64,000 bases of DNA from a phage. This document shows, one piece after another, positions 6,541-32,211 of the stretch. Every line of letters begins with the position of its first letter. Position 1 is the first letter of the stretch. Below the pieces are notes generated by a model, which saw only the letters and a program-made list of their open reading frames with translations, did no database searches and had not been told where the DNA came from. Both the position numbers and the translations under genes were made by a program. The DNA is taken from NCBI GenBank assembly GCA_019338205.1, contig GCA_019338205.1_4761.1; one strand, given 5' to 3'.

Positions 6541-6550
6541 GGTGATTATT

Positions 6551-7078
6551 ATGAAATGGGAAGTTGGTAAAACTTACAAGATTGAATGCGAAGCGTCGAA
6601 AGCCGAACTAACTAAATTTTCGTCGTCTATTAACAGATGTATTGTTGACTTGTTGGCTGGTCGCCCGTTTAGGGTAGAAGACCTTGACGATGATGGTGAT
6701 GTTAGAGAAATTACTGTTATTGGTAGTAATTTCGACTCTATGACGTTAAAAGAATCCCCTATTGGCTGTTCCGGCGTGTGGTTTTGGTCGGGTGAGCGTC
6801 GTTTCTTTACCGAAGTTACTATTGAACCTAAGATTCCAGATTCGGAAGAAAAAGAAGAAGACCTAACTTTAGAACGCCTGGGTCTGCTTATGGAAGCCTA
6901 CGACATTCAGTTGATCGATAAGATGGGGTTACATAATAGCATTGCCAAAATTACTACCCTAGAAGGTATTAAGAGCGTACTGGATGGTATGCCTAGCCGG
7001 ATCGGTGCTATCCGAGAATACAAACAAACGCGCGACCGTATGATCCAATTAGAATCACGTATCAAAAATGAGAGATGA
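6551..7078 (+). CDS. hypothetical protein, repeat-domain family B1 (MKWEVGKTY... start)
   Basis: ATG 6551; N-terminal MKWEVGKTY shared with 7083 and 7560 ORFs; RPF...DG...W(F)...ERRFF motif; C-terminal coiled coil. Confidence 0.65.
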   Translation: MKWEVGKTYKIECEASKAELTKFSSSINRCIVDLLAGRPFRVEDLDDDGDVREITVIGSNFDSMTLKESPIGCSGVWFWSGERRFFTEVTIEPKIPDSEEKEEDLTLERLGLLMEAYDIQLIDKMGLHNSIAKITTLEGIKSVLDGMPSRIGAIREYKQTRDRMIQLESRIKNER

Positions 7079-7082
7079 TATT

Positions 7083-7547
7083 ATGAAATGGGAAGTTGGT
7101 AAAACCTATGCGTGGAAAGATGTAAAAGATGCAAACCAATTTTTTAAATGGTATGATGTTGATTATTTGAAATATCTGAGATTACCGTTTAAAGTTGCGT
7201 CGGTTGATGCGAAAAAAGGATACGTGCGGTCTGTATATCTTCATGATGGAACTTATATGAGTTCAACCGATGTAGGTCTATCTTGTTGGTTTCTGGATCA
7301 TGACCGTAGCAGATTTGAAGAAATTATTATTCCAGAAGAATCTAAATTAATTGATCTTCTCAAGTTGGCGATGGATAATTATAAAATCCGCTTTGAATGC
7401 AAATCACATGCGGCTATCGGTGCTAACGCATTGCGTCATATCTCCAGTTTTGAAGAGTTGAAAGATTTTCTTGACAAAATGCCGGAAAGAGTGCAAGCTA
7501 TACAGGAAGCAGAGAAAGCATTAAACGAACTTGATAAAATCGGTTAA
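7083..7547 (+). CDS. hypothetical protein, repeat-domain family B2
   Basis: MKWEVGKTYAWKD N-terminus; C-terminal KDFLDKMPERVQAIQEAEKALNELDKIG tail. Confidence 0.65.
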   Translation: MKWEVGKTYAWKDVKDANQFFKWYDVDYLKYLRLPFKVASVDAKKGYVRSVYLHDGTYMSSTDVGLSCWFLDHDRSRFEEIIIPEESKLIDLLKLAMDNYKIRFECKSHAAIGANALRHISSFEELKDFLDKMPERVQAIQEAEKALNELDKIG

Positions 7548-7559
7548 GGGGAATATATT

Positions 7560-8384
7560 ATGAAATGGGAAATTGGTAAAACTTACACCTGGAAAGACGA
7601 AAACGCTAAAACTGAGTTTATTACTAACGGAGAAGGTGTTCTTTCTCCACTTAACAGCGATATTAGTGCAGCTATTGGTGACAAGCCATTTACCATCATC
7701 GAGATCGAGGGTAACGGTTGGATTGATGCAATAGAGCTAGACGGTGTTTATCATACGGCGAAAACTGCTACAGGAAAAGACATTTGGACTGCAACATATT
7801 TCTTTAGTCCATTCGATAGAAAATTCTTTCGTGAAGTTGAAGAAGTTCCCCAGAAATGGGAAGTTGGTAAAACTTATACTTGGAAAGATGTGAATGCTAT
7901 GACAGACTTCTGCCATTATGCTGAAAACGCATCTAACCTTAATTATGTTATTGCACGAGCAATAAATTATAGACCTTTTACTGTTAAAAATGTTCGTCCA
8001 TGTGGGCAAATTGATGTAATTGAAATTGATGGTAAAGACCATACTCTAATGAGCGCAACCGAAGATAGAGACCATAAAGGAACTAGCTGGTTTATTGATT
8101 CTGATAGAAAATTCTTTCGTGAAGTAGAAGAATTGGAAGTTATAACCACTGATTCTAAGATCGTTGGACAGTTGAAACGTCTGTTTAGTAGTCGTTACGG
8201 CCTGACAATGGTTAAATTTGGCGAAGCAAATGAAGGTAAAACCTTTGAACGTTTCGATGATTTCATTGCGGCACTTGACAAGATGGATGAAATCATGCAA
8301 GATCGCCAGAAGATTAAAGACCTTCAAGAAGACATTAAACGTCGTGAAGTTGAATTTTTGATTGGTAAAGAGCGAGGTTGGTAA
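7560..8384 (+). CDS. hypothetical protein with two tandem copies of the family domain
   Basis: MKWEIGKTYTWKD...RKFFREVEEV then QKWEVGKTYTWKD...RKFFREVEEL internal duplication; 274 aa. Confidence 0.7.
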   Translation: MKWEIGKTYTWKDENAKTEFITNGEGVLSPLNSDISAAIGDKPFTIIEIEGNGWIDAIELDGVYHTAKTATGKDIWTATYFFSPFDRKFFREVEEVPQKWEVGKTYTWKDVNAMTDFCHYAENASNLNYVIARAINYRPFTVKNVRPCGQIDVIEIDGKDHTLMSATEDRDHKGTSWFIDSDRKFFREVEELEVITTDSKIVGQLKRLFSSRYGLTMVKFGEANEGKTFERFDDFIAALDKMDEIMQDRQKIKDLQEDIKRREVEFLIGKERGW

Positions 8385-8385
8385 T

Positions 8386-8868
8386 ATGTTTGTTGCTGGC
8401 GTGACCTATCAGTGGAAAGATAAGAAAACGAGAGAAGATTTTGCAAACTTTAGCGTTGCAAATGATGCAATAGCAGAGTTTATAGGCGACCGTCCATTTA
8501 AAGTTATCGCATTTGATCACCATGCATCGGATGTTGATTATGTTTCTGCGATTGAAATTGATGGCACGGTATACACCTGCTGCAATGTTGATGATGTACG
8601 GGAATACGCGCACAACTGGTTTTTGCAATCAGAAGAACGTCATTTTAAAGTGGTATCGGCAGAACTGACCACTGATGCAATGTTGGAACAATTTTTCAAC
8701 AACTACGAAGTTTCTGTACGTCGATACGGTGAAGAGGAAGTATTTAAAATTGATGACTATAATCAGTTTAAACGAGTATTCGCCACTAAGATCCAACGTG
8801 ATATTGAACGCGAGAAGCGCATTAAGGAACTGGAAGAAGAACTAGAAAGATTAAAGGCTGAGAAATGA
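8386..8868 (+). CDS. hypothetical protein, repeat-domain family B4
   Basis: track ORF 8362..8868 trimmed to internal ATG; VTYQWKD...RPFKV...IEIDG.VYT...WF..EERHFKVV; C-terminal ELEEELERLKAEK. Confidence 0.6.
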   Translation: MFVAGVTYQWKDKKTREDFANFSVANDAIAEFIGDRPFKVIAFDHHASDVDYVSAIEIDGTVYTCCNVDDVREYAHNWFLQSEERHFKVVSAELTTDAMLEQFFNNYEVSVRRYGEEEVFKIDDYNQFKRVFATKIQRDIEREKRIKELEEELERLKAEK

Positions 8869-9134
8869 TCGAGATATACGGTATACCGAAAGAGGCTTAT
8901 CATTGTTATGGTTGTATTAGTGCAATGAAGCTACTGGATGATCTGGGTATTCCGTATACACTTAAACCAGTATTCAAGCCGGTCGGGGTTGACATTATTC
9001 CCGACCGTGATATGATTGAAGAACTGGCGGGGAGGCTAAACTCAAAGAGCCTCCGGTTTGTATACCCCCAGATATTCATTGACAACGAGCACATTGGAGG
9101 CTATAAAGAACTGAGGGCGATTTATGATTATTGA
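8865..9134 (+). CDS. glutaredoxin/NrdH-like redoxin
   Basis: 89 aa; CxxC (HCYGC) near the N-terminus; sits between nrdG and gp55 where T4-type phages carry a glutaredoxin. Confidence 0.6.
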   Translation: MIEIYGIPKEAYHCYGCISAMKLLDDLGIPYTLKPVFKPVGVDIIPDRDMIEELAGRLNSKSLRFVYPQIFIDNEHIGGYKELRAIYDY

Positions 9135-9282
9135 GAATTTAGTTTCGGTGTTCATTATTGCTTTATTTGCTATAATGACTTTACCGTTGAAGAAGTGTAA
9201 GCACTGTAACGGAACAGGATTGCGTGGTGATGGGTGTTGCGCTCATTGTCATGGATCTGGTAAAGTAAGTATCATTAAGTAA
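9124..9282 (+). CDS. small membrane-anchored DnaJ-type zinc-finger peptide (about 52 aa), not on the ORF track
   Basis: hand translation MIIENLVSVFIIALFAIMTLPLKKCKHCNGTGLRGDGCCAHCHGSGKVSIIK: hydrophobic N-terminus plus two CxxCxGxG repeats; coordinates approximate. Confidence 0.4.
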   Translation: MIIENLVSVFIIALFAIMTLPLKKCKHCNGTGLRGDGCCAHCHGSGKVSIIK

Positions 9283-9303: not shown

Positions 9304-9591
9304 ATGTTAGTACACAATGCAATCGCACACATGGTTTATTCTCGATTTGGGCGCATGGAAGAAATCAATATTACCGACGCAGATTTAGATCTGATGCAAG
9401 TCGAAGGCCAGACATATCTGAAAAATAACGGCGTGAATATCGGTAAAGCGCGTGTGCGTGAATTGTTAGTTGAATATATTCTCTCTGAATTTGGCATTAG
9501 TGCTTTCGGTGTGAAAGAGATTGCACCTAAGCGCGAAATTTCTGATAAAATGATCAAGAAATGCCAGAAAGCACGACGTAAGGGTTTCTAA
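9304..9591 (+). CDS. hypothetical protein
   Basis: ATG 9304 after GAGGAATATATT; track ORF 9286..9591 trimmed. Confidence 0.55.
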   Translation: MLVHNAIAHMVYSRFGRMEEINITDADLDLMQVEGQTYLKNNGVNIGKARVRELLVEYILSEFGISAFGVKEIAPKREISDKMIKKCQKARRKGF

Positions 9592-11060
9592 TGAAGATTG
9601 AAACATTAATTGCATTGCCAGCGGCGGGGAAAACTGATGCTATACTTTCCCACGTCCTAGAGACAAAAGAAAAAGCGGTTATTGCTTCGCCATCTCGTGT
9701 TTTAAGTGAACAATCTTACAATAAGTTTAAAAGAATGGGCGGTCGTGCTGTCTTGATTGATAGCACAAGACTAAGAAGCCTTAAGACAGTGCAAGCGTCG
9801 ATAATGCAATCAGTTAAAGACGGTGCTGATGTGATATTCATTACACATACAGCGTTATCTAATATGGAACGTTCAAAAATGTTTGGTGAATATGCTCTTT
9901 ACATTGATGAAGTTCCTCAACTGGTTGAATTTAATGAGTATCCGTTTAAGTCTAATCTTGAACTTATCACGAAGCATTGCGAACCAATCGCCGACGAATC
10001 GGAATGCCTACAGAACTTAGTTCTAAAAGACTCTGAGAAGGCCGTTATCAAAGAAAAGATAGAAAGTGCAAAGGATGGTACTGATATGATCGATTCTTCT
10101 CTTAGAGGGCTTTATGAGGCGTTATTAGAGAAGAAAATCAACGTTATGGTAAAACATAACGAAGGACACCGGAAGAATGGGTCGAAAATTGTTTTCTTGA
10201 ACGATAACAAACACGGTACGTGGGGAGACTTTAAAAAGGTTACGATAGCATGTGCAAATCTCTTTGATACATATAGCGGGAAGTATCTACGATACTATGC
10301 AAATTGCGATTTTGTTCCGAGTGCGCTAGAATCCAGACTATATTTCAAAGAGTATAAAAATACAGATAGAGTTAATATCATCCTTATGACGGACTCTGAA
10401 CGATGGTCGCGTCACCAGTCAGAAACAAACAATACCTTTGAACGTCTTGTTGATATGGTTAAAAATGAATGTGGCGATGACTTCATTTATACCGTGAATC
10501 GGGACCGAGAAGCGTGTACAAATGGTATTGGTGAGCGGATACCTTACGGATCTTATGGTCTTAACTCTTACATTCATCATAAAAATGTTGCTGTGATGTT
10601 CAGCTTTAACCCGCAACGATGGGAGATTGATATTTTAAAAGGTCTTGCTAATAGTTGTGATCTCCCGACAAACGAGTTTTTGAAAGCGCGTCATGTGTCT
10701 GATTATCTGGAACCAGCATTTCAATTATGTTTGCGTTGTAACCTGAGAGACAACGAGAGCAAGGAGAATGTTAATCTATATGTTCCTGATTTGGCGTTGG
10801 TAGATTATCTAAAAACGTTTCTACCTGATGCCAATGTAATAACAGACCGAATGATTCCGCTAGAATGTGGTGAGCGTAAAGGGCGAAAATCATTTAAAAA
10901 GATGTTCGATTTTAACGAGCAAGAGAATGCAAGATTTAACGGATTTAAGTACCGCATGAAGAAAAAGGGAAAAACTCTTGATCCGTCTGACGGTGAATCT
11001 GTAGAGATGGTTAGAGTGTGGATAACTAAGCAAAGAAAGTATAATGGTAATGGGGAATAG
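9591..11060 (+). CDS. P-loop NTPase of unknown function (helicase/ATPase-like)
   Basis: 489 aa; Walker A-like ALPAAGKT at residues 9-16 and Walker B-like ALYIDEVPQ about 100 aa later. Confidence 0.7.
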   Translation: MKIETLIALPAAGKTDAILSHVLETKEKAVIASPSRVLSEQSYNKFKRMGGRAVLIDSTRLRSLKTVQASIMQSVKDGADVIFITHTALSNMERSKMFGEYALYIDEVPQLVEFNEYPFKSNLELITKHCEPIADESECLQNLVLKDSEKAVIKEKIESAKDGTDMIDSSLRGLYEALLEKKINVMVKHNEGHRKNGSKIVFLNDNKHGTWGDFKKVTIACANLFDTYSGKYLRYYANCDFVPSALESRLYFKEYKNTDRVNIILMTDSERWSRHQSETNNTFERLVDMVKNECGDDFIYTVNRDREACTNGIGERIPYGSYGLNSYIHHKNVAVMFSFNPQRWEIDILKGLANSCDLPTNEFLKARHVSDYLEPAFQLCLRCNLRDNESKENVNLYVPDLALVDYLKTFLPDANVITDRMIPLECGERKGRKSFKKMFDFNEQENARFNGFKYRMKKKGKTLDPSDGESVEMVRVWITKQRKYNGNGE

Positions 11061-11100
11061 CCCGAAAGGGTTATTTCCTAAATAATAGCGAGGGTGCGAA

Positions 11101-11634
11101 GTGTCTGATTATGTAAACAATAAAGAGCTTTACGAAGAAATTTGCCGTTGGAAACAACAAATTGCAGCAGAAGGTCGGCAAGTTCCAATGAGCGATCAAA
11201 TCGGCCTAGCAATTATGCAAATCTCTAAAAATCTATCACGTCGTTTTAACTTTTCTGGTTATAGTCAAACATGGCGCGAAGAAATGATCGACGACGGAAT
11301 CGAAGCGGCGGTCAAGGGTTTGATTAATTTTGACGAGACAAAGTATAAAAATCCTCATGCTTACATCACGCAAGCGTGCTTTAATGCTTTTGTACAGCGC
11401 ATTAAAAAAGAGAGAACAGCGACAGCCGCAAAATACAAATATTTTGTGCATCATGTATATGACGAACGCGACGCTGATATGTGCCAGATTGCTGATGAGG
11501 CATTCATACAGGACATTTACGATAAAATCAACAACTACGAGGAATCGGTCAATAAACCGAAAGCGCCAAAGGTTGAAGATGTATTGACCGAGGAATTGCC
11601 TAGCCTGGACCAATTTTATGAGATTGAAAATTAA
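11101..11634 (+). CDS. 55: late-transcription sigma factor gp55
   Basis: GTG start; [44 protein letters not shown] match remembered T4 gp55. Confidence 0.92.
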
Positions 11635-11851
11635 CATTTCCCGTTTGCTGGAAGAAGCAGAGTTTGAAACTGACCTTGTGCCGTATTTCGCCAAATTATT
11701 TTTGAGAGATTGCGGCGTTCCGGTGATTATCGATCCGTGCAATATCAAATCACCGGATCTTGAGGTCTTTACGGGTACAATCTCACATAGCTATAATGTA
11801 TCAGAAGATGAATTTTCTTTAATAATTGATTATATCCCAGAAGGAAAATAA
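11618..11851 (+). CDS. hypothetical protein
   Basis: 77-aa ORF overlapping the gp55 3' end. Confidence 0.45.
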
Positions 11852-11852
11852 C

Positions 11853-12140
11853 ATGACTTACGATGAACAGCATGACCAGATTGCAGTGAATGAAGTAGAC
11901 AAAGTACAAGCAGAACTAGAGGCTAAAGCCGCTAAGAAAGCGGAAAAGATCTTGCGTAAGAACTCGCGAGAGATTGCACGCCTTAAGCGGTGGGCTGAAC
12001 AAGCTATCATCGATGATAACCGTGATGCGTATATCTACGCTATCGGAAAGTTACGTGATATCTATAAACAGCCACACACGCCAGAACTGCTTTCTGCTAT
12101 GTGGATTAGTACACGGCAAACGGTATTAAGTATGCTGTAA
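11853..12140 (+). CDS. hypothetical protein
   Basis: ATG 11853 after AAGGAAAATAAC; track ORF 11826..12140 trimmed. Confidence 0.5.
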   Translation: MTYDEQHDQIAVNEVDKVQAELEAKAAKKAEKILRKNSREIARLKRWAEQAIIDDNRDAYIYAIGKLRDIYKQPHTPELLSAMWISTRQTVLSML

Positions 12141-12149
12141 TGGCTTTAT

Positions 12150-12187
12150 AAGGGAGACTCCGAAAGGGGTTTCCCTTTTTATTTTTC
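12150..12187 (+). terminator. possible terminator hairpin
   Basis: imperfect GC stem (AAGGGA...TCCCTT) followed by TTTTTATTTTTC. Confidence 0.4.
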
Positions 12188-24200: not shown

Positions 24201-24518
24201 ATGGATAAGAAACCAACAAGTTTAGAAGAAGCACACAGCTTGATTCAAGAAGCAATGAAGACAGTTATTCAGGAATTGATAATTGTTGATGAAGAGGGAG
24301 AACATCATATTGTCTATATTCATAATGTTGAATACGATCCAGACACTAAAGGTATTATGGTCGACTACTCCACGCCGTCAGATCGTGATGTGGTATATCC
24401 ACACGTCATTAAGGCGTTAACCGCGCAGATCAAAGAAGCAGAAGAAAAGTTGAAAAAAGAAACTTTCTGGTATAAACTCAAGACCTTTGTTATGCGTGTA
24501 GTTGGGGGCTATGTATGA
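24201..24518 (+). CDS. hypothetical protein at the position of T4 gene 40
   Basis: 105 aa between uvsX and gp41; hydrophobic C-terminus; identity by synteny only. Confidence 0.6.
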   Translation: MDKKPTSLEEAHSLIQEAMKTVIQELIIVDEEGEHHIVYIHNVEYDPDTKGIMVDYSTPSDRDVVYPHVIKALTAQIKEAEEKLKKETFWYKLKTFVMRVVGGYV

Positions 24519-25927
24519 TTAAAACTATCTTTTCACAGTTGATTTACAATGGCGCATTCTTTACGAATGTATGGCCTCACCTTAAAGCGGACTACTTCAC
24601 CGAAGACGAAGAAAAACTGATTTATAAGCTGATTAAAAAGCACGTAGACGAATATTCCAATATTCCTACGCCAACTGCATTACAGATTGCTTTAGACAAG
24701 GAGAGAGGCAATCAGACAACATATGAAGGGGCTAAAACTCTTCTTGATTCGCTTGAGAATACACCGGAAGACCTTGATTGGTTAATGAAGGAAACCGAAA
24801 AATTTATTCGTGACCGCGCTATGTATAATGCAATGTCACGGGCGCTAGAGATTCAGGCGAACGCACAACTACCAAAAGAGAAACAGAATAAGAAATTGCC
24901 GAGTGAGGGTGCTATCCCTGAGATCATGCAGGAAGCACTATCCATTACGTTTGATTCTGATGTAGGTCATGACTGGTTTAATGACTTTGAAAAACGATTC
25001 TTGCTATATCAGACTAAGGCGAATAAGATCCCGTTTAAGCTGCCGATGTTGAATAAAATCACGAAAGGAGGGGCGGAAAGAAAAACGCTAAATGTGTTGC
25101 TTGCTGGTGTAAACGTTGGTAAATCGCTTGGCTTGTGTTCTCTTGCTGCGGATTATATGGAATGTGGTTATGATGTATTGTATATCTCAATGGAGATGGC
25201 AGAGCATGTCGTAGCCAAACGTATCGACGCAAACTTGCTTGACATTACATTAGATGAATTGGATAATGGTAATGTTTCTTTTGCGGAATATTCCGCACGT
25301 ATGAAGCGTGTTAAGAATAAGAAGATCGGGGATCGTCCGGTTGGAAAATTGATGATCAAGCAGTATCCGACTGGTGGCGCAAACTCCAATCACTTTGAGG
25401 CGTTAATGAATGAATTGCGACTCAAGAAACAGTTTAAACCTGATGTTGTGATTGTTGACTATCTGGGGATTTGCGCATCGTCTCGCTTGCGTGTATACTC
25501 TGAAAATAGTTACACACTAGTTAAGGCGATTGCGGAAGAACTGCGAGGATTTTTTGTTAAGTGGGATGTTGTTGGTTGGACTGCGGCACAGACTACCCGC
25601 GAGGGTTGGGATGCTTCCGACCTTAACATGAGTGATACCGCTGAATCAGCAGGTCTTCCGGCTACTGCCGACTTTATGTTGGGTGTTATCGAAACCGAAG
25701 ACCTGGCTAAAATGGGCGTCCAACTCATGAAGCAGATCAAGTCTCGTTACGGTGATAAGAACTATTATTCACGGTTTAACGTTGGTGTGAAGAAAGGCAA
25801 TCAGCGTTGGTATGAAGTACCAAACCAGATCGCAGATCAGGAGAATGCACAAGTTAAACCACAAAGCGCACAGCAAGCCGAGAAACGAGAAAAACTCGAC
25901 GAGCTAGCAAATAACATGACTTTCTAA
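24515..25927 (+). CDS. 41: replicative DNA helicase gp41 (DnaB-like)
   Basis: Walker A LLAGVNVGKS, Walker B VVIVDYLG; 470 aa. Confidence 0.92.
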   Translation: MIKTIFSQLIYNGAFFTNVWPHLKADYFTEDEEKLIYKLIKKHVDEYSNIPTPTALQIALDKERGNQTTYEGAKTLLDSLENTPEDLDWLMKETEKFIRDRAMYNAMSRALEIQANAQLPKEKQNKKLPSEGAIPEIMQEALSITFDSDVGHDWFNDFEKRFLLYQTKANKIPFKLPMLNKITKGGAERKTLNVLLAGVNVGKSLGLCSLAADYMECGYDVLYISMEMAEHVVAKRIDANLLDITLDELDNGNVSFAEYSARMKRVKNKKIGDRPVGKLMIKQYPTGGANSNHFEALMNELRLKKQFKPDVVIVDYLGICASSRLRVYSENSYTLVKAIAEELRGFFVKWDVVGWTAAQTTREGWDASDLNMSDTAESAGLPATADFMLGVIETEDLAKMGVQLMKQIKSRYGDKNYYSRFNVGVKKGNQRWYEVPNQIADQENAQVKPQSAQQAEKREKLDELANNMTF

Positions 25928-27554: not shown

Positions 27555-28583
27555 ATGATTTACTACGCAGATTATGAAATAGCGGAAAAAGCCATATACG
27601 GCGAACGAAATTTTAAACGGTTGCATACTAGCTCATTTACGCTGGTCTGTAGTTGTCCGATCTGCGGTGACTCAAAGAAAAATCATACTCAAGCGCGATT
27701 CCGTATCTATACCTATAAGGATAGTTTGCGTTGCGGCTGTTTCAACTGTAACTACAATCAGCCATTAGGTGAATTTCTCAAACAGTATAAGCCGGACCTA
27801 TTCAGGGAATGGCTTATGGAACGACGGAAGGAACAAGGCGACCACAAGAACACCACGTTCAAGCCACTGAAAAAGGTAGAAAAGCCGGAGATTAAGAAAG
27901 TGCAAACATTGCCTTTCTGCGAGAGATTAGATACTCTTCCGGCTAATCATCCTATAATAAAGTATGTCAGTGATCGCTGTATTCCTCACGATAAATGGGA
28001 TCTTCTGTATTTCACGAGAGAATGGCAAAAGGTAGCAAATCACATTAAGGCTGATACTTTCAAGAATCCACAACCTGAACCGCGTTTAGTGATTCCTATC
28101 TTTAACCGCGAGAACAAGATAGAATCCATTCAGGGGCGAGCATTGAGAAAGGATTACGGAAAGACCAAATATATGACGATTAAAACTCATGAGTTAGCGA
28201 GTAAGGTCTATGGTCTTGAACGCGCCGATCCGAGTAAACCAGTGTATTTCTTAGAAGGTCCGATCGATTCATTGTTTATTGATAACGGGTGTGCAATTAC
28301 TGGCGGTACTTTGGGATTAGATGAAATCCCTTTCCCAGACCAGCGAGTGTTTGTACTTGATGCGGAACCACGGTCTGCCGATACAATGCACCGACTGGAA
28401 AAGTTTATCAATGCAGGGGAAAAGATTGTATTGTGGGACCGTTGCCCGTGGCATTCTAAAGACGTTAACGCCATGATTCAGGACGAGGGCGCTACACGCG
28501 ACCAGATCATGGAATATATCAAAGAGAACACCGTACAAGGTCTGATGGCTAAAATGCGGTTTATGAAATATTGTAAATTTTAA
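27555..28583 (+). CDS. 61: DNA primase gp61
   Basis: 342 aa; N-terminal zinc ribbon CPICGDS...CGCFNC; TOPRIM-like FLEGPIDSLF; same length as T4 gp61. Confidence 0.9.
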   Translation: MIYYADYEIAEKAIYGERNFKRLHTSSFTLVCSCPICGDSKKNHTQARFRIYTYKDSLRCGCFNCNYNQPLGEFLKQYKPDLFREWLMERRKEQGDHKNTTFKPLKKVEKPEIKKVQTLPFCERLDTLPANHPIIKYVSDRCIPHDKWDLLYFTREWQKVANHIKADTFKNPQPEPRLVIPIFNRENKIESIQGRALRKDYGKTKYMTIKTHELASKVYGLERADPSKPVYFLEGPIDSLFIDNGCAITGGTLGLDEIPFPDQRVFVLDAEPRSADTMHRLEKFINAGEKIVLWDRCPWHSKDVNAMIQDEGATRDQIMEYIKENTVQGLMAKMRFMKYCKF

Positions 28584-30506: not shown

Positions 30507-30820
30507 TGCATGTATTTGCTGTATGTTATCGTGATAAAGACGGATTCTTTCAATACTCAGTGGACGCGAAGGGTCGCGTCCTAACTTGCGAAACACATGA
30601 TGCTGCGTTAGCGTCAATGTGTGATCAGATAGATTATTGTGAGAGTCTATTGGCAGGTGAACCGAAATACAAGGTTGTACCTAAACGAAAATTTGGCATA
30701 ATCCGGTCTTCTGAAATTGTTCGGGATGGTATCGAATATAAAATTCCTGAATATGAAAAAGAACGGGTACGGCGAGAACTCAATACTATCTGTGTTCGCA
30801 AGGTGAGGATTTTAGGATAA
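30506..30820 (+). CDS. hypothetical protein
   Basis: 104-aa ORF directly upstream of dda. Confidence 0.55.
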   Translation: MHVFAVCYRDKDGFFQYSVDAKGRVLTCETHDAALASMCDQIDYCESLLAGEPKYKVVPKRKFGIIRSSEIVRDGIEYKIPEYEKERVRRELNTICVRKVRILG

Positions 30821-32211
30821 TGAGCAGAGTATTAACTTTCGATATGTTAACAGACGGACAAAAACATGCTTTTGATGTTCTAATGAAACGCATTGAACAA
30901 AAGAAGCATACAACTGTCCGTGGTGCGGCGGGTACTGGTAAAACCGCAATGATGAAATTCATTGTTCAGGAAATGGTCCGTCGTGGTGTAACTGGTGTGG
31001 TTTTGGCAACGCCTACCCACCAGGCTAAAAAAGTTTTGAGTAAAGCGGTAGGTCGTCAAGCATTTACTTTACATGCACTACTGCGACTAAACCCGACCAA
31101 CTATGAAGATACTCAAGTATTTGAGCAAAAAGATACTCCTAAGCTAGATGATGTTCAGATCATCATTGTTGATGAAGCGAGTATGGTCGATAAGAAACTA
31201 TTTGATATTCTCATGAAGAGTATCAACGGTCGAATTGTTATTATTGCCGTGGGTGATCTGTACCAGTTACGACCAGTTGATCCGAGCGGTGCAACGTCGA
31301 TCTCTCCTTTCTTCACCGATGAAAGGTTTCAGAATGTAGAACTTACAGAGATTAAACGATCTAATGCGCCAATAATTGATGTGGCGACCGCTGTCCGTAA
31401 TGGTAAATGGGTATTCGAAAAGCAGTGCGGTAACGAGGGTGTATTCCATAGCTCAACTCTGCCGGAGTTTATGAAGCATTATTTCGAAACCGTTAAAACG
31501 CCGGAAGACCTTCTAGAAAACCGTATTCTGGCCTACACTAACAAGAGCGTCGAAAAACTCAATGAAATTGTACGTAAGCGCGTTTATAACACCGATGAAC
31601 CAGTGATTGTAGATGAAATTCTGGTTACTCAGGAACCATTGATCGAATATCTGCGAGATGAACGCGGGAAGAAGATTCCCAATGTTATTTTTAACAATGG
31701 TGAGATGATCCGAGTTAAAGAGGTCATCCCGCGTGAATTTACATTACGTTGCACGGGGGTAGATCCGCAACCAGTTTTAGGCTATACTCTGAAAGTGGAA
31801 AGCGTCGATGATGACGAAGACAAAGAAATCCTAAATCAGAAAGTTGGTTTAGATGCAGTCGGAATCACTACAGATAAACCGGATTTAGTAGAAATCAACA
31901 TTCTGACAGAACAACGCCAGAAGAACATTTTCTCTATCTATCTGAATACGGTCGCCGGACAATATCGCGAAATGAAGAAAGAGAATCCAAAATTTAAACC
32001 AGATTGGGATTCCTTCTGGACGATGAAACGTATGTTCTTGAATGTAAAAGCATTACCAGCTTGCACCATTCATAAGTCACAAGGGATCAGCGTAGACCGC
32101 GTGTTCCTGTATACTCCTTGCATGTGTACAGACAATGTTGACTTTGAATTGGCAATGCAGTTATTATATGTGGGTGTTACCCGTGCGCGGTATCGAGTAG
32201 ACTATATTTGA
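30820..32211 (+). CDS. dda: SF1 DNA helicase Dda
   Basis: Walker A GAAGTGKT, IIIVDEASM, FNNGEMIRV, and TPCMCTDNVDFELAMQLLYVGVTRARYRVDYI closely match remembered T4 Dda. Confidence 0.93.
   Translation: MSRVLTFDMLTDGQKHAFDVLMKRIEQKKHTTVRGAAGTGKTAMMKFIVQEMVRRGVTGVVLATPTHQAKKVLSKAVGRQAFTLHALLRLNPTNYEDTQVFEQKDTPKLDDVQIIIVDEASMVDKKLFDILMKSINGRIVIIAVGDLYQLRPVDPSGATSISPFFTDERFQNVELTEIKRSNAPIIDVATAVRNGKWVFEKQCGNEGVFHSSTLPEFMKHYFETVKTPEDLLENRILAYTNKSVEKLNEIVRKRVYNTDEPVIVDEILVTQEPLIEYLRDERGKKIPNVIFNNGEMIRVKEVIPREFTLRCTGVDPQPVLGYTLKVESVDDDEDKEILNQKVGLDAVGITTDKPDLVEINILTEQRQKNIFSIYLNTVAGQYREMKKENPKFKPDWDSFWTMKRMFLNVKALPACTIHKSQGISVDRVFLYTPCMCTDNVDFELAMQLLYVGVTRARYRVDYI

Follow-up and report, generated by a model that had tools for sequence, protein, structure and literature searches.

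Phages of the T4 type are the reference system for the biochemistry of the replisome and of recombination, and the phage helicases Dda (SF1B), UvsW (SF2) and gp41 (DnaB-like) belong to this same replication and recombination system. XPD, Rad3 and DinG are SF2 helicases that act on DNA in the 5′→3′ direction. CasDinG, the helicase of type IV-A CRISPR systems (8s35, 7xf0, 8e2w), is recruited by the CRISPR effector and has a vestigial Fe-S domain and an N-terminal domain. Herpesvirus UL9, an origin-binding SF2 helicase, is a viral protein linked to the initiation of replication.

In 2018 Kazlauskas et al. described pVOG1685 and pVOG9714 as a "novel helicase family specific to viruses and plasmids" in which SF2-like helicase domains are fused to All3500-type AEP primases and have their closest homologs among uncharacterised proteins from "some T4-like phages" (Kazlauskas et al., 2018; PMC5862659). 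They also pointed out that pVOG9714, the sister group, resembles UL9. The family had thus already been flagged in passing as a predicted helicase; their paper gives no structure and no link to DinG/XPD, and it does not describe an order with the helicase first and the primase last.

Here we describe a member of what is almost certainly this family, matched by description and not by pVOG number. It is encoded directly upstream of gene 55 in a 64,000-nucleotide stretch of phage DNA (contig GCA_019338205.1_4761.1 of GenBank assembly GCA_019338205.1; below, the window), which is of the RB49/Phi1/JSE-type Krischvirus kind.

The gene and its surroundings

The original prediction had placed an ORF of 489 aa upstream of gp55, and it lies exactly there, with gene 55 beginning at 11101. 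The features of the locus are:

9304–9591, + strand: gene 55.2 (DUF7570), the upstream neighbour; product 42% identical to T4 gp55.2 (E 9e-19)
9580–9584, + strand: Shine-Dalgarno sequence AAGGG, 6 nt 5′ of the helicase ATG and within the end of 55.2
9591–11060, + strand: complete helicase ORF with ATG start, 489 aa; ortholog of Phi1 ORF044; PHROG 2467
11051–11080, + strand: hairpin of 13 bp with a GAAA tetraloop; dG −20.1 kcal/mol, z −4.0 against shuffles
11101–11634: gene 55 (late sigma factor, gp55), after a spacer of 40 nt

The protein shares 99.2% identity with Phi1 ORF044 and 99.4% with its RB49 counterpart. In every listed record the homologs are annotated as "hypothetical protein" or "conserved hypothetical protein" or not at all, and PHROG 2467, which the protein matches with E 1e-173, is labelled "unknown function". 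Judged by sequence conservation the ORF is a real gene and far beyond a chance ORF, because it matches PHROG 2467, recurs in 244 phage records and 1,363 cluster representatives, and has invariant catalytic residues.

The TAA stop codon of 55.2 overlaps the ATG of the helicase gene (TAATG), which suggests translational coupling and gives a weak hint that the two genes are co-expressed. The hairpin at 11051–11080 covers the stop codon of the helicase gene, lies between it and gene 55 and is not followed by a T-run; it may be an element of mRNA stability or processing between the two genes. The equivalent spacer in Aeromonas phage 31 carries an annotated repeat element (L002 6571–6641). Between a-gt.4 and gene 47 there is a second hairpin, intrinsic terminator-like (12150–12180; 12 bp, GAAA loop, then a T-run), which suggests a transcription-unit boundary 3′ of the block formed by the helicase gene and gene 55. 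Upstream, a sigma-70 promoter-like site (8989–9016; TTGACA, 16 nt, TG-TATGAT, 11/12) lies inside nrdH, ahead of ORF046, 55.2 and the helicase gene. Since a scan of the window for such sites gave no enrichment over shuffles (15 found, 11.3 expected), we claim no promoter. Rfam families were not found in the window.

Several neighbouring genes were recorded along with the locus. Homologs of T4 a-gt.5 and a-gt.4 occupy 11618–12140, between genes 55 and 47; the alpha-glucosyltransferase gene, mobB, a-gt.2 and a-gt.3, present in T4 (L010), are absent from this interval, and their absence would fit a phage without glucosyl-HMC DNA. Between nrdG and nrdH, at 6542–8868, four tandem paralogous ORFs begin with MKWE(V/I)GKTY (6542–7078, 7068–7547, 7560–8384 and 8362–8868) and, from their sequence likeness, form a gene family amplified at this place. 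In the third the domain is present twice; this ORF and the fourth, the two that were scanned, match PHROG 5347/622 and also have hits to "goF mRNA metabolism modulator" families (E 1e-10 to 3e-5). An ORF of 52 aa at 9124–9282, which overlaps the end of nrdH, encodes an N-terminal hydrophobic helix followed by CxxCxGxG...CxxCxGxG, the pattern of a DnaJ-type zinc finger; it corresponds to Phi1 ORF046 (hypothetical) and to PHROG 3931 (unknown function).

Motifs and invariant residues

The motif residues were read from an alignment of 31 sequences (A1), and their conservation at a distance was scored over 131 full-length relatives. The motifs are:

9612–9635, + strand: motif I (Walker A), ALPAAGKT, residues 8–15; G13, K14 and T15 invariant
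9681–9716, + strand: motif Ia-like IASPSRVLSEQS, residues 31–42; by eye like VVSTANVALQDQI of DinG
9825–9857, + strand: ADVIFITHTAL block, residues 79–89; T85/H86 highly conserved; by eye like AEVVVANHALV of DinG
9897–9920, + strand: motif II (Walker B), LYIDEVPQ, residues 103–110; D106 and E107 in 131/131 distant relatives
9921–10235, + strand: insertion of ~105 residues between motifs II and III; strands and two long helices, at the position of the XPD/DinG Arch domain
10242–10262, + strand: motif III-like TIACANL, residues 218–224; N223 invariant in the T4-like subgroup
10482–10622, + strand: motifs IV, V and Va of the second RecA-like domain, from motif mapping and alignment
10716–10751, + strand: motif VI-like AFQLCLRCNLRD, residues 376–387; Q378, R382 and R386 in 131/131; arginine fingers
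10881–11057, + strand: basic, mostly helical C-terminal tail, residues 431–489; pI 10.0 (core, 6.1)

Within the second RecA-like domain, motif IV is represented by FIYTVNRDR (residues 298–306; N303 in 123 of the 131), motif V by YGSYGLNSY (residues 319–327; G323 and N325 in all 131) and motif Va by MFSFNPQRW (residues 336–344). Eight residues, K14, D106, E107, G323, N325, Q378, R382 and R386, are without exception across the 131 distant relatives, and N303, T85/H86, S273 and D400 are nearly invariant. The same residues are invariant in separate alignments of the long forms (A3) and of the distant short forms (A4) of the family introduced below. We read this pattern as that of a functional NTPase whose motif VI provides an arginine finger.

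An earlier proposal from the bare sequence, a P-loop NTPase with the layout of SF1/SF2 enzymes, thus becomes more specific. The Walker A-like and Walker B-like motifs that it named stand ~92 residues apart and survive careful alignment (K14, D106 and E107 in every distant relative), and the protein has what defines SF2: tandem RecA-like domains, motifs I–VI in order, the Walker A lysine, the Walker B Asp-Glu pair and an arginine finger in motif VI. Atypical are the spacing of motif VI (Q-x3-R-x3-R), the form DEVP of motif II and the form ANL of motif III.

The tail (residues 431–489, with W477) is confined to the T4-like subgroup; in the long-form relatives the same position leads into a primase-like domain. 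C130 and C380 are invariant only within the T4-like subgroup. Neither cysteine is kept in the wider family, and the protein has no Fe-S or zinc site.

Comparison with XPD, DinG and other SF2 helicases

Sequence libraries gave little. Pfam returned a marginal match to PF00270 (DEAD; residues 11–130, 27.4 bits with a cutoff of 26) and AAA_34 below threshold, and a sequence search of the PDB up to E = 10 returned nothing for either the protein or the family profile. The AF2 model is confident (pLDDT 87.8, pTM 0.77), and a Foldseek search gave independent agreement on the fold: all of its top 16 PDB matches are DinG, CasDinG, XPD or Rad3 proteins. The XPD/DinG matches align 80–100 more residues than other SF2 matches; the insertion between motifs II and III is half the usual Arch size. 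The modelled fold is that of a two-RecA-domain helicase closest to XPD/DinG, not that of a transferase.

The motif map explains the fold match. Among the XPD/Rad3/DinG helicases (for example 3crv, 6fwr and 9kqh), E. coli DinG has the same order of motifs, and its Arch takes up ~200 residues between motifs II and III; at this position the phage protein has an insertion of ~105 residues, a candidate counterpart of the Arch. Between motif Ia and the AEVVVANH block E. coli DinG accommodates its Fe-S domain in 124 residues; the phage protein has 36 residues between motif Ia and the ADVIFITH block, which leaves no room for an Fe-S domain. By this mapping the protein has an insertion at the Arch site and none at the Fe-S site. 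It further differs from XPD/DinG in having no conserved cysteines, in its total length of only 489 aa and in its motifs (DEVP, ANL and Q-x3-R-x3-R as against DEAH/DEGH and SAT). From CasDinG it differs in lacking both the vestigial Fe-S domain and the N-terminal domain, and in being the product of a lytic-phage gene rather than a component recruited by a CRISPR effector.

Membership of the DinG/XPD family on the basis of sequence was rejected. In hhalign the A1 family profile and E. coli DinG gave a probability of 0.4, which is not significant, and neither the protein nor any of 31 homologs had a Pfam match to DEAD_2 (PF06733) or Helicase_C_2 (PF13307). By sequence and by the Fe-S criterion the protein is therefore classified as a distinct variant and not as a DinG/XPD member.

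Another reading is a DEAD-box-type RNA helicase or RNP remodeller that would act on phage or host transcripts. DEAD-box RNA helicases have a Q motif, DEAD, SAT and ~30 residues between motifs II and III, whereas the phage protein has DEVP, ANL and 107 residues between these motifs; its Walker A begins as early as residue 8, with no Q motif ahead of it. The whole-protein structural matches are DNA helicases, with ~100 more residues aligned, and the primase fusions described below also favour DNA. An RNA helicase is, of the explanations considered here, the one to which we give least credence. Only a little more probable, and still improbable, is a Snf2/HsdR-like motor that translocates on dsDNA and clears RNA polymerase or nucleoid proteins without separating the strands. 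Snf2/HsdR-like structures do occur among the matches; they score clearly below XPD/DinG with ~100 fewer residues aligned, and the protein has neither Snf2-specific insertions nor a Pfam SNF2 match.

Distribution and synteny in T4-like phages

By tblastn the gene was found in 244 of 50,697 phage records. In 59 of these the match is at the Krischvirus level (at least 95% identity); the other 185, at less than 60% identity, include Aeromonas phages 31, 25, 65, Aes012 and others, the RB16-type Pseudotevenvirus and T4-like phages of Cronobacter, Proteus, Serratia, Erwinia and Yersinia. As the original prediction had supposed, there is no T4 counterpart: tblastn found no homolog in T4-type phages, and the T4 record has at the position of the helicase gene, between 55.2 and 55, the ORFan 55.1 of 87 aa. 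In genome contigs from MAGs only three close T4-like contigs were found and no bacterial chromosomal homologs, and a search of plasmids gave only three weak Sinorhizobium fragments.

Seven T4-like lineages were inspected. In six the helicase gene stands between the nrd/55.2 block on one side and gene 55 on the other, with a-gt.4, 47 and 46 next in order; the exception is RB16, where gene 34 follows. Between genera the helicase is 39–64% identical, in the range of gp55 (34–64%) and gp47 (41–51%); with the few taxa available, the rank order of its divergence did not correlate significantly with that of gp55 or gp47.

In five of the seven lineages, among them RB16, phage 65, Proteus PM2 and Cronobacter S13, the helicase gene is adjacent to 55.2, whose T4 product binds DNA and inhibits host topoisomerase I (PMC4396842). 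A functional pairing of the two was considered and downgraded: in Aeromonas 31 and Serratia PS2 an unrelated gene stands 5′ of the helicase in place of 55.2, and in T4 the locus retains 55.2 although there is no helicase gene. For the latter reason the pairing is read mainly as inherited synteny. The gene that overlaps the helicase start in Aeromonas phage 31 (L002 4441–5004; 187 aa) is annotated "DprA-like DNA recombination-mediator"; it had no Pfam match at E ≤0.01.

The window also encodes gp41 (24515–25927), gp61 (27555–28583), Dda (30820–32211) and UvsX, so the helicase is an addition and not a replacement.

The original prediction had suggested a role in DNA modification or anti-restriction. 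The protein could, for example, be a translocase that strips or decoys host complexes, or the partner of a methyltransferase. The locus is indeed hyperplastic in T4, the structurally related CasDinG, Hna and DdmD act in defence systems, and a gene for an N6/N4 methyltransferase lies 1–3 genes upstream of the homolog in the Agrobacterium jumbo phage Atu_ph07 and in some members of a distant clade of phages with genomes of 130–146 kb. This gene is the sole hint of modification; it is missing from all T4-like loci examined and from other members of the clade. The remaining neighbours in that clade look like homing endonucleases. (The CapR-domain protein, the 584-aa ORF and the HNH/NUMOD4 genes beside distant homologs were rejected as partners, being homing endonuclease-like.) A link to cytosine hydroxymethylation was likewise rejected, since the helicase gene occurs independently of the HMC pathway: Aeromonas 31 and 25 have the dCMP hydroxymethylase gene 42, the RB49 type and RB16 do not (gene 42 according to Table 4 of PMC2993671), and all of them carry the helicase gene. 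NCBIfam had no match for the protein, and PADLOC a single marginal one (RTasSLATT; E 0.009, 13.6 bits). The gene stays at one locus and is conserved like a core gene among genera that infect different hosts, which sets it apart from arms-race genes. Together with the helicase fold and the primase-fused relatives, these results speak against the suggestion, and we regard a counter-defence or modification role as very improbable.

Relatives fused to primases

An exhaustive profile search found 1,363 cluster representatives, 810 of them at E ≤1e-10. The best 150 of the 1,363 fall into two size classes of ~450–620 aa and ~720–890 aa, and the dominant architecture, found in 55 of these 150, has the helicase first and the primase last. 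A homologous C-terminal domain of ~350 aa is common to all 55 long forms examined. It has the patterns LDxDxG, RYRV and GxDxxK (alignment A2), repeatedly matches "DNA primase" families of PHROG (9765 at E 3e-9 to 1e-8, and 2135) and, in 2 of 19 members, weakly matches Pfam PriCT_1; its profile found nothing among PDB sequences. On the PHROG matches, the motif patterns and the literature we assign it as a putative AEP primase domain. Helicase domains homologous to the T4-like proteins and fused to AEP/PriCT primase domains are thus found by profile search. In the window and the related T4-like loci no separately encoded primase-like domain was found.

In the metagenomic protein P0117 the order is reversed: AEP-like motifs (IVFDFDED, GSGHVYV) and a weak PHROG primase match at the N-terminus precede the helicase. 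The description of pVOG1685/pVOG9714 fits the T4-like proteins and also this N-terminal AEP-helicase fusion. N-terminal extensions of ~370–400 aa were seen in P0117, where the extension is AEP primase-like, and in the likewise metagenomic P0150, a protein of 1,266 aa extended at both ends with a primase-like domain as its C-terminal extension.

Gp191 of Atu_ph07 is a long form. On a 16-kb wastewater phage contig a long form is the first gene of the block that separates the tail-fibre genes from the terminase gene, and it is the only recognisable replication gene there.

In the distant 130–146-kb clade (L020 8489–10246; L017 10498–11671; L021 9604–11293; L019 12565–13808) the helicase homolog is the last gene of a rightward block, in most cases directly after a small MerR/HTH_17 gene. 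Behind it come 1.2–1.8 kb without called genes or tRNAs, with dispersed short palindromes such as TATAGCGTTGCTATA (three times) or TATTGCGTAGCAATA. This stretch may be an origin or have a regulatory function.

These relatives bring up a helicase for the initiation or restart of replication, a stand-alone remnant of a phage primase-helicase that would open origins or reload the replisome independently of gp59/gp41, by analogy with UL9 or a primosome helicase. The repeated fusion to primase domains, the long form that is apparently the sole replication gene of a small phage contig and the arrangement in the distant clade, with a small MerR/HTH gene before the helicase and repeated palindromes in the gene-free DNA after it, point in this direction. 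So do the UL9 similarity of pVOG9714 (Kazlauskas et al., 2018) and the weaker Foldseek matches in BFVD, among them herpes and algal-virus origin-binding proteins (E 4e-5; UL9 itself, 4.5e-5). However, the phage protein lacks the origin-binding C-terminal domain of UL9 and any recognisable sequence-specific DNA-binding domain, Pfam Herpes_ori_bp is absent among matches up to E = 1, and the matches to the DinG/XPD fold are far stronger than the UL9-like ones. Nor is there a gene-free or repeat-rich region beside the gene in the window, only the 40-nt spacer before gene 55, and the phage has the full gp41/gp61 system. A dedicated initiation or restart helicase is therefore unlikely, though less so than the other alternatives.

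Proposed function

We propose, with a probability of roughly 0.6, that the gene encodes an active SF2 DNA helicase or translocase, XPD/DinG-like and without an Fe-S cluster, that is auxiliary in the replication and recombination of T4-like phages. The protein would be an ATP-driven motor built from two RecA-like domains, in which an accessory domain separates motif II from motif III, and would probably translocate 5′→3′ on ssDNA as XPD and DinG do. Since the XPD-type wedge for strand separation is missing when there is neither an Fe-S nor a vestigial Fe-S domain, it is uncertain in which direction the protein moves and even whether it truly unwinds DNA or only translocates.

A role in replication is favoured because distant relatives are fused to primases, and it must be auxiliary because the phage already has gp41, gp61 and Dda and because T4 does without the gene. 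The protein, predicted to be expressed early and to act on DNA rather than RNA, most likely works beside gp41/gp61 and Dda as an accessory helicase, with forks, D-loops or R-loops as its substrates in replication or recombination. Members of this large family of phages and mobile elements are often fused, at either end, to a primase of archaeo-eukaryotic type (with PriCT), and in such fusions they would presumably do the unwinding for a primase-helicase; the RB49-type and many other non-T-even T4-like phages have the helicase module alone.

A bolder version, which we consider doubtful, is that the short form in T4-like phages comes from a second primosome lineage, independent of gp41, of which it is the helicase half, and that non-T-even T4-like phages retain it to initiate or restart replication. 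The Fe-S-free DinG/XPD-like SF2 helicase would then be the replicative helicase fused to an AEP primase in many small phages. In T4-like phages it might unwind R-loops or D-loops at origins, possibly together with the co-translated topoisomerase I inhibitor gp55.2, which would promote negative supercoiling and R-loop formation.

Implications

The helicase is conserved about as well as gp55 and gp47 in Krischvirus, Pseudotevenvirus, the Aeromonas T4-like phages and several other genera, and it is without an assigned function because T4 itself lacks the gene. Its placement as XPD/DinG-like and Fe-S-free, together with its link to a family exceeding 1,000 clusters in which fusion to AEP primases recurs, provides a concrete hypothesis that is biochemically testable, and the label "hypothetical protein" could be replaced in hundreds of phage genomes. 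If the long forms are replicative primase-helicases, an SF2/XPD-like motor would join the DnaB, MCM, SF3 and RepA-like types of replicative helicase. If, moreover, the T4-like short form does descend from a second primosome, the family, XPD-like in architecture, would stand as a new class among replicative or initiator helicases.
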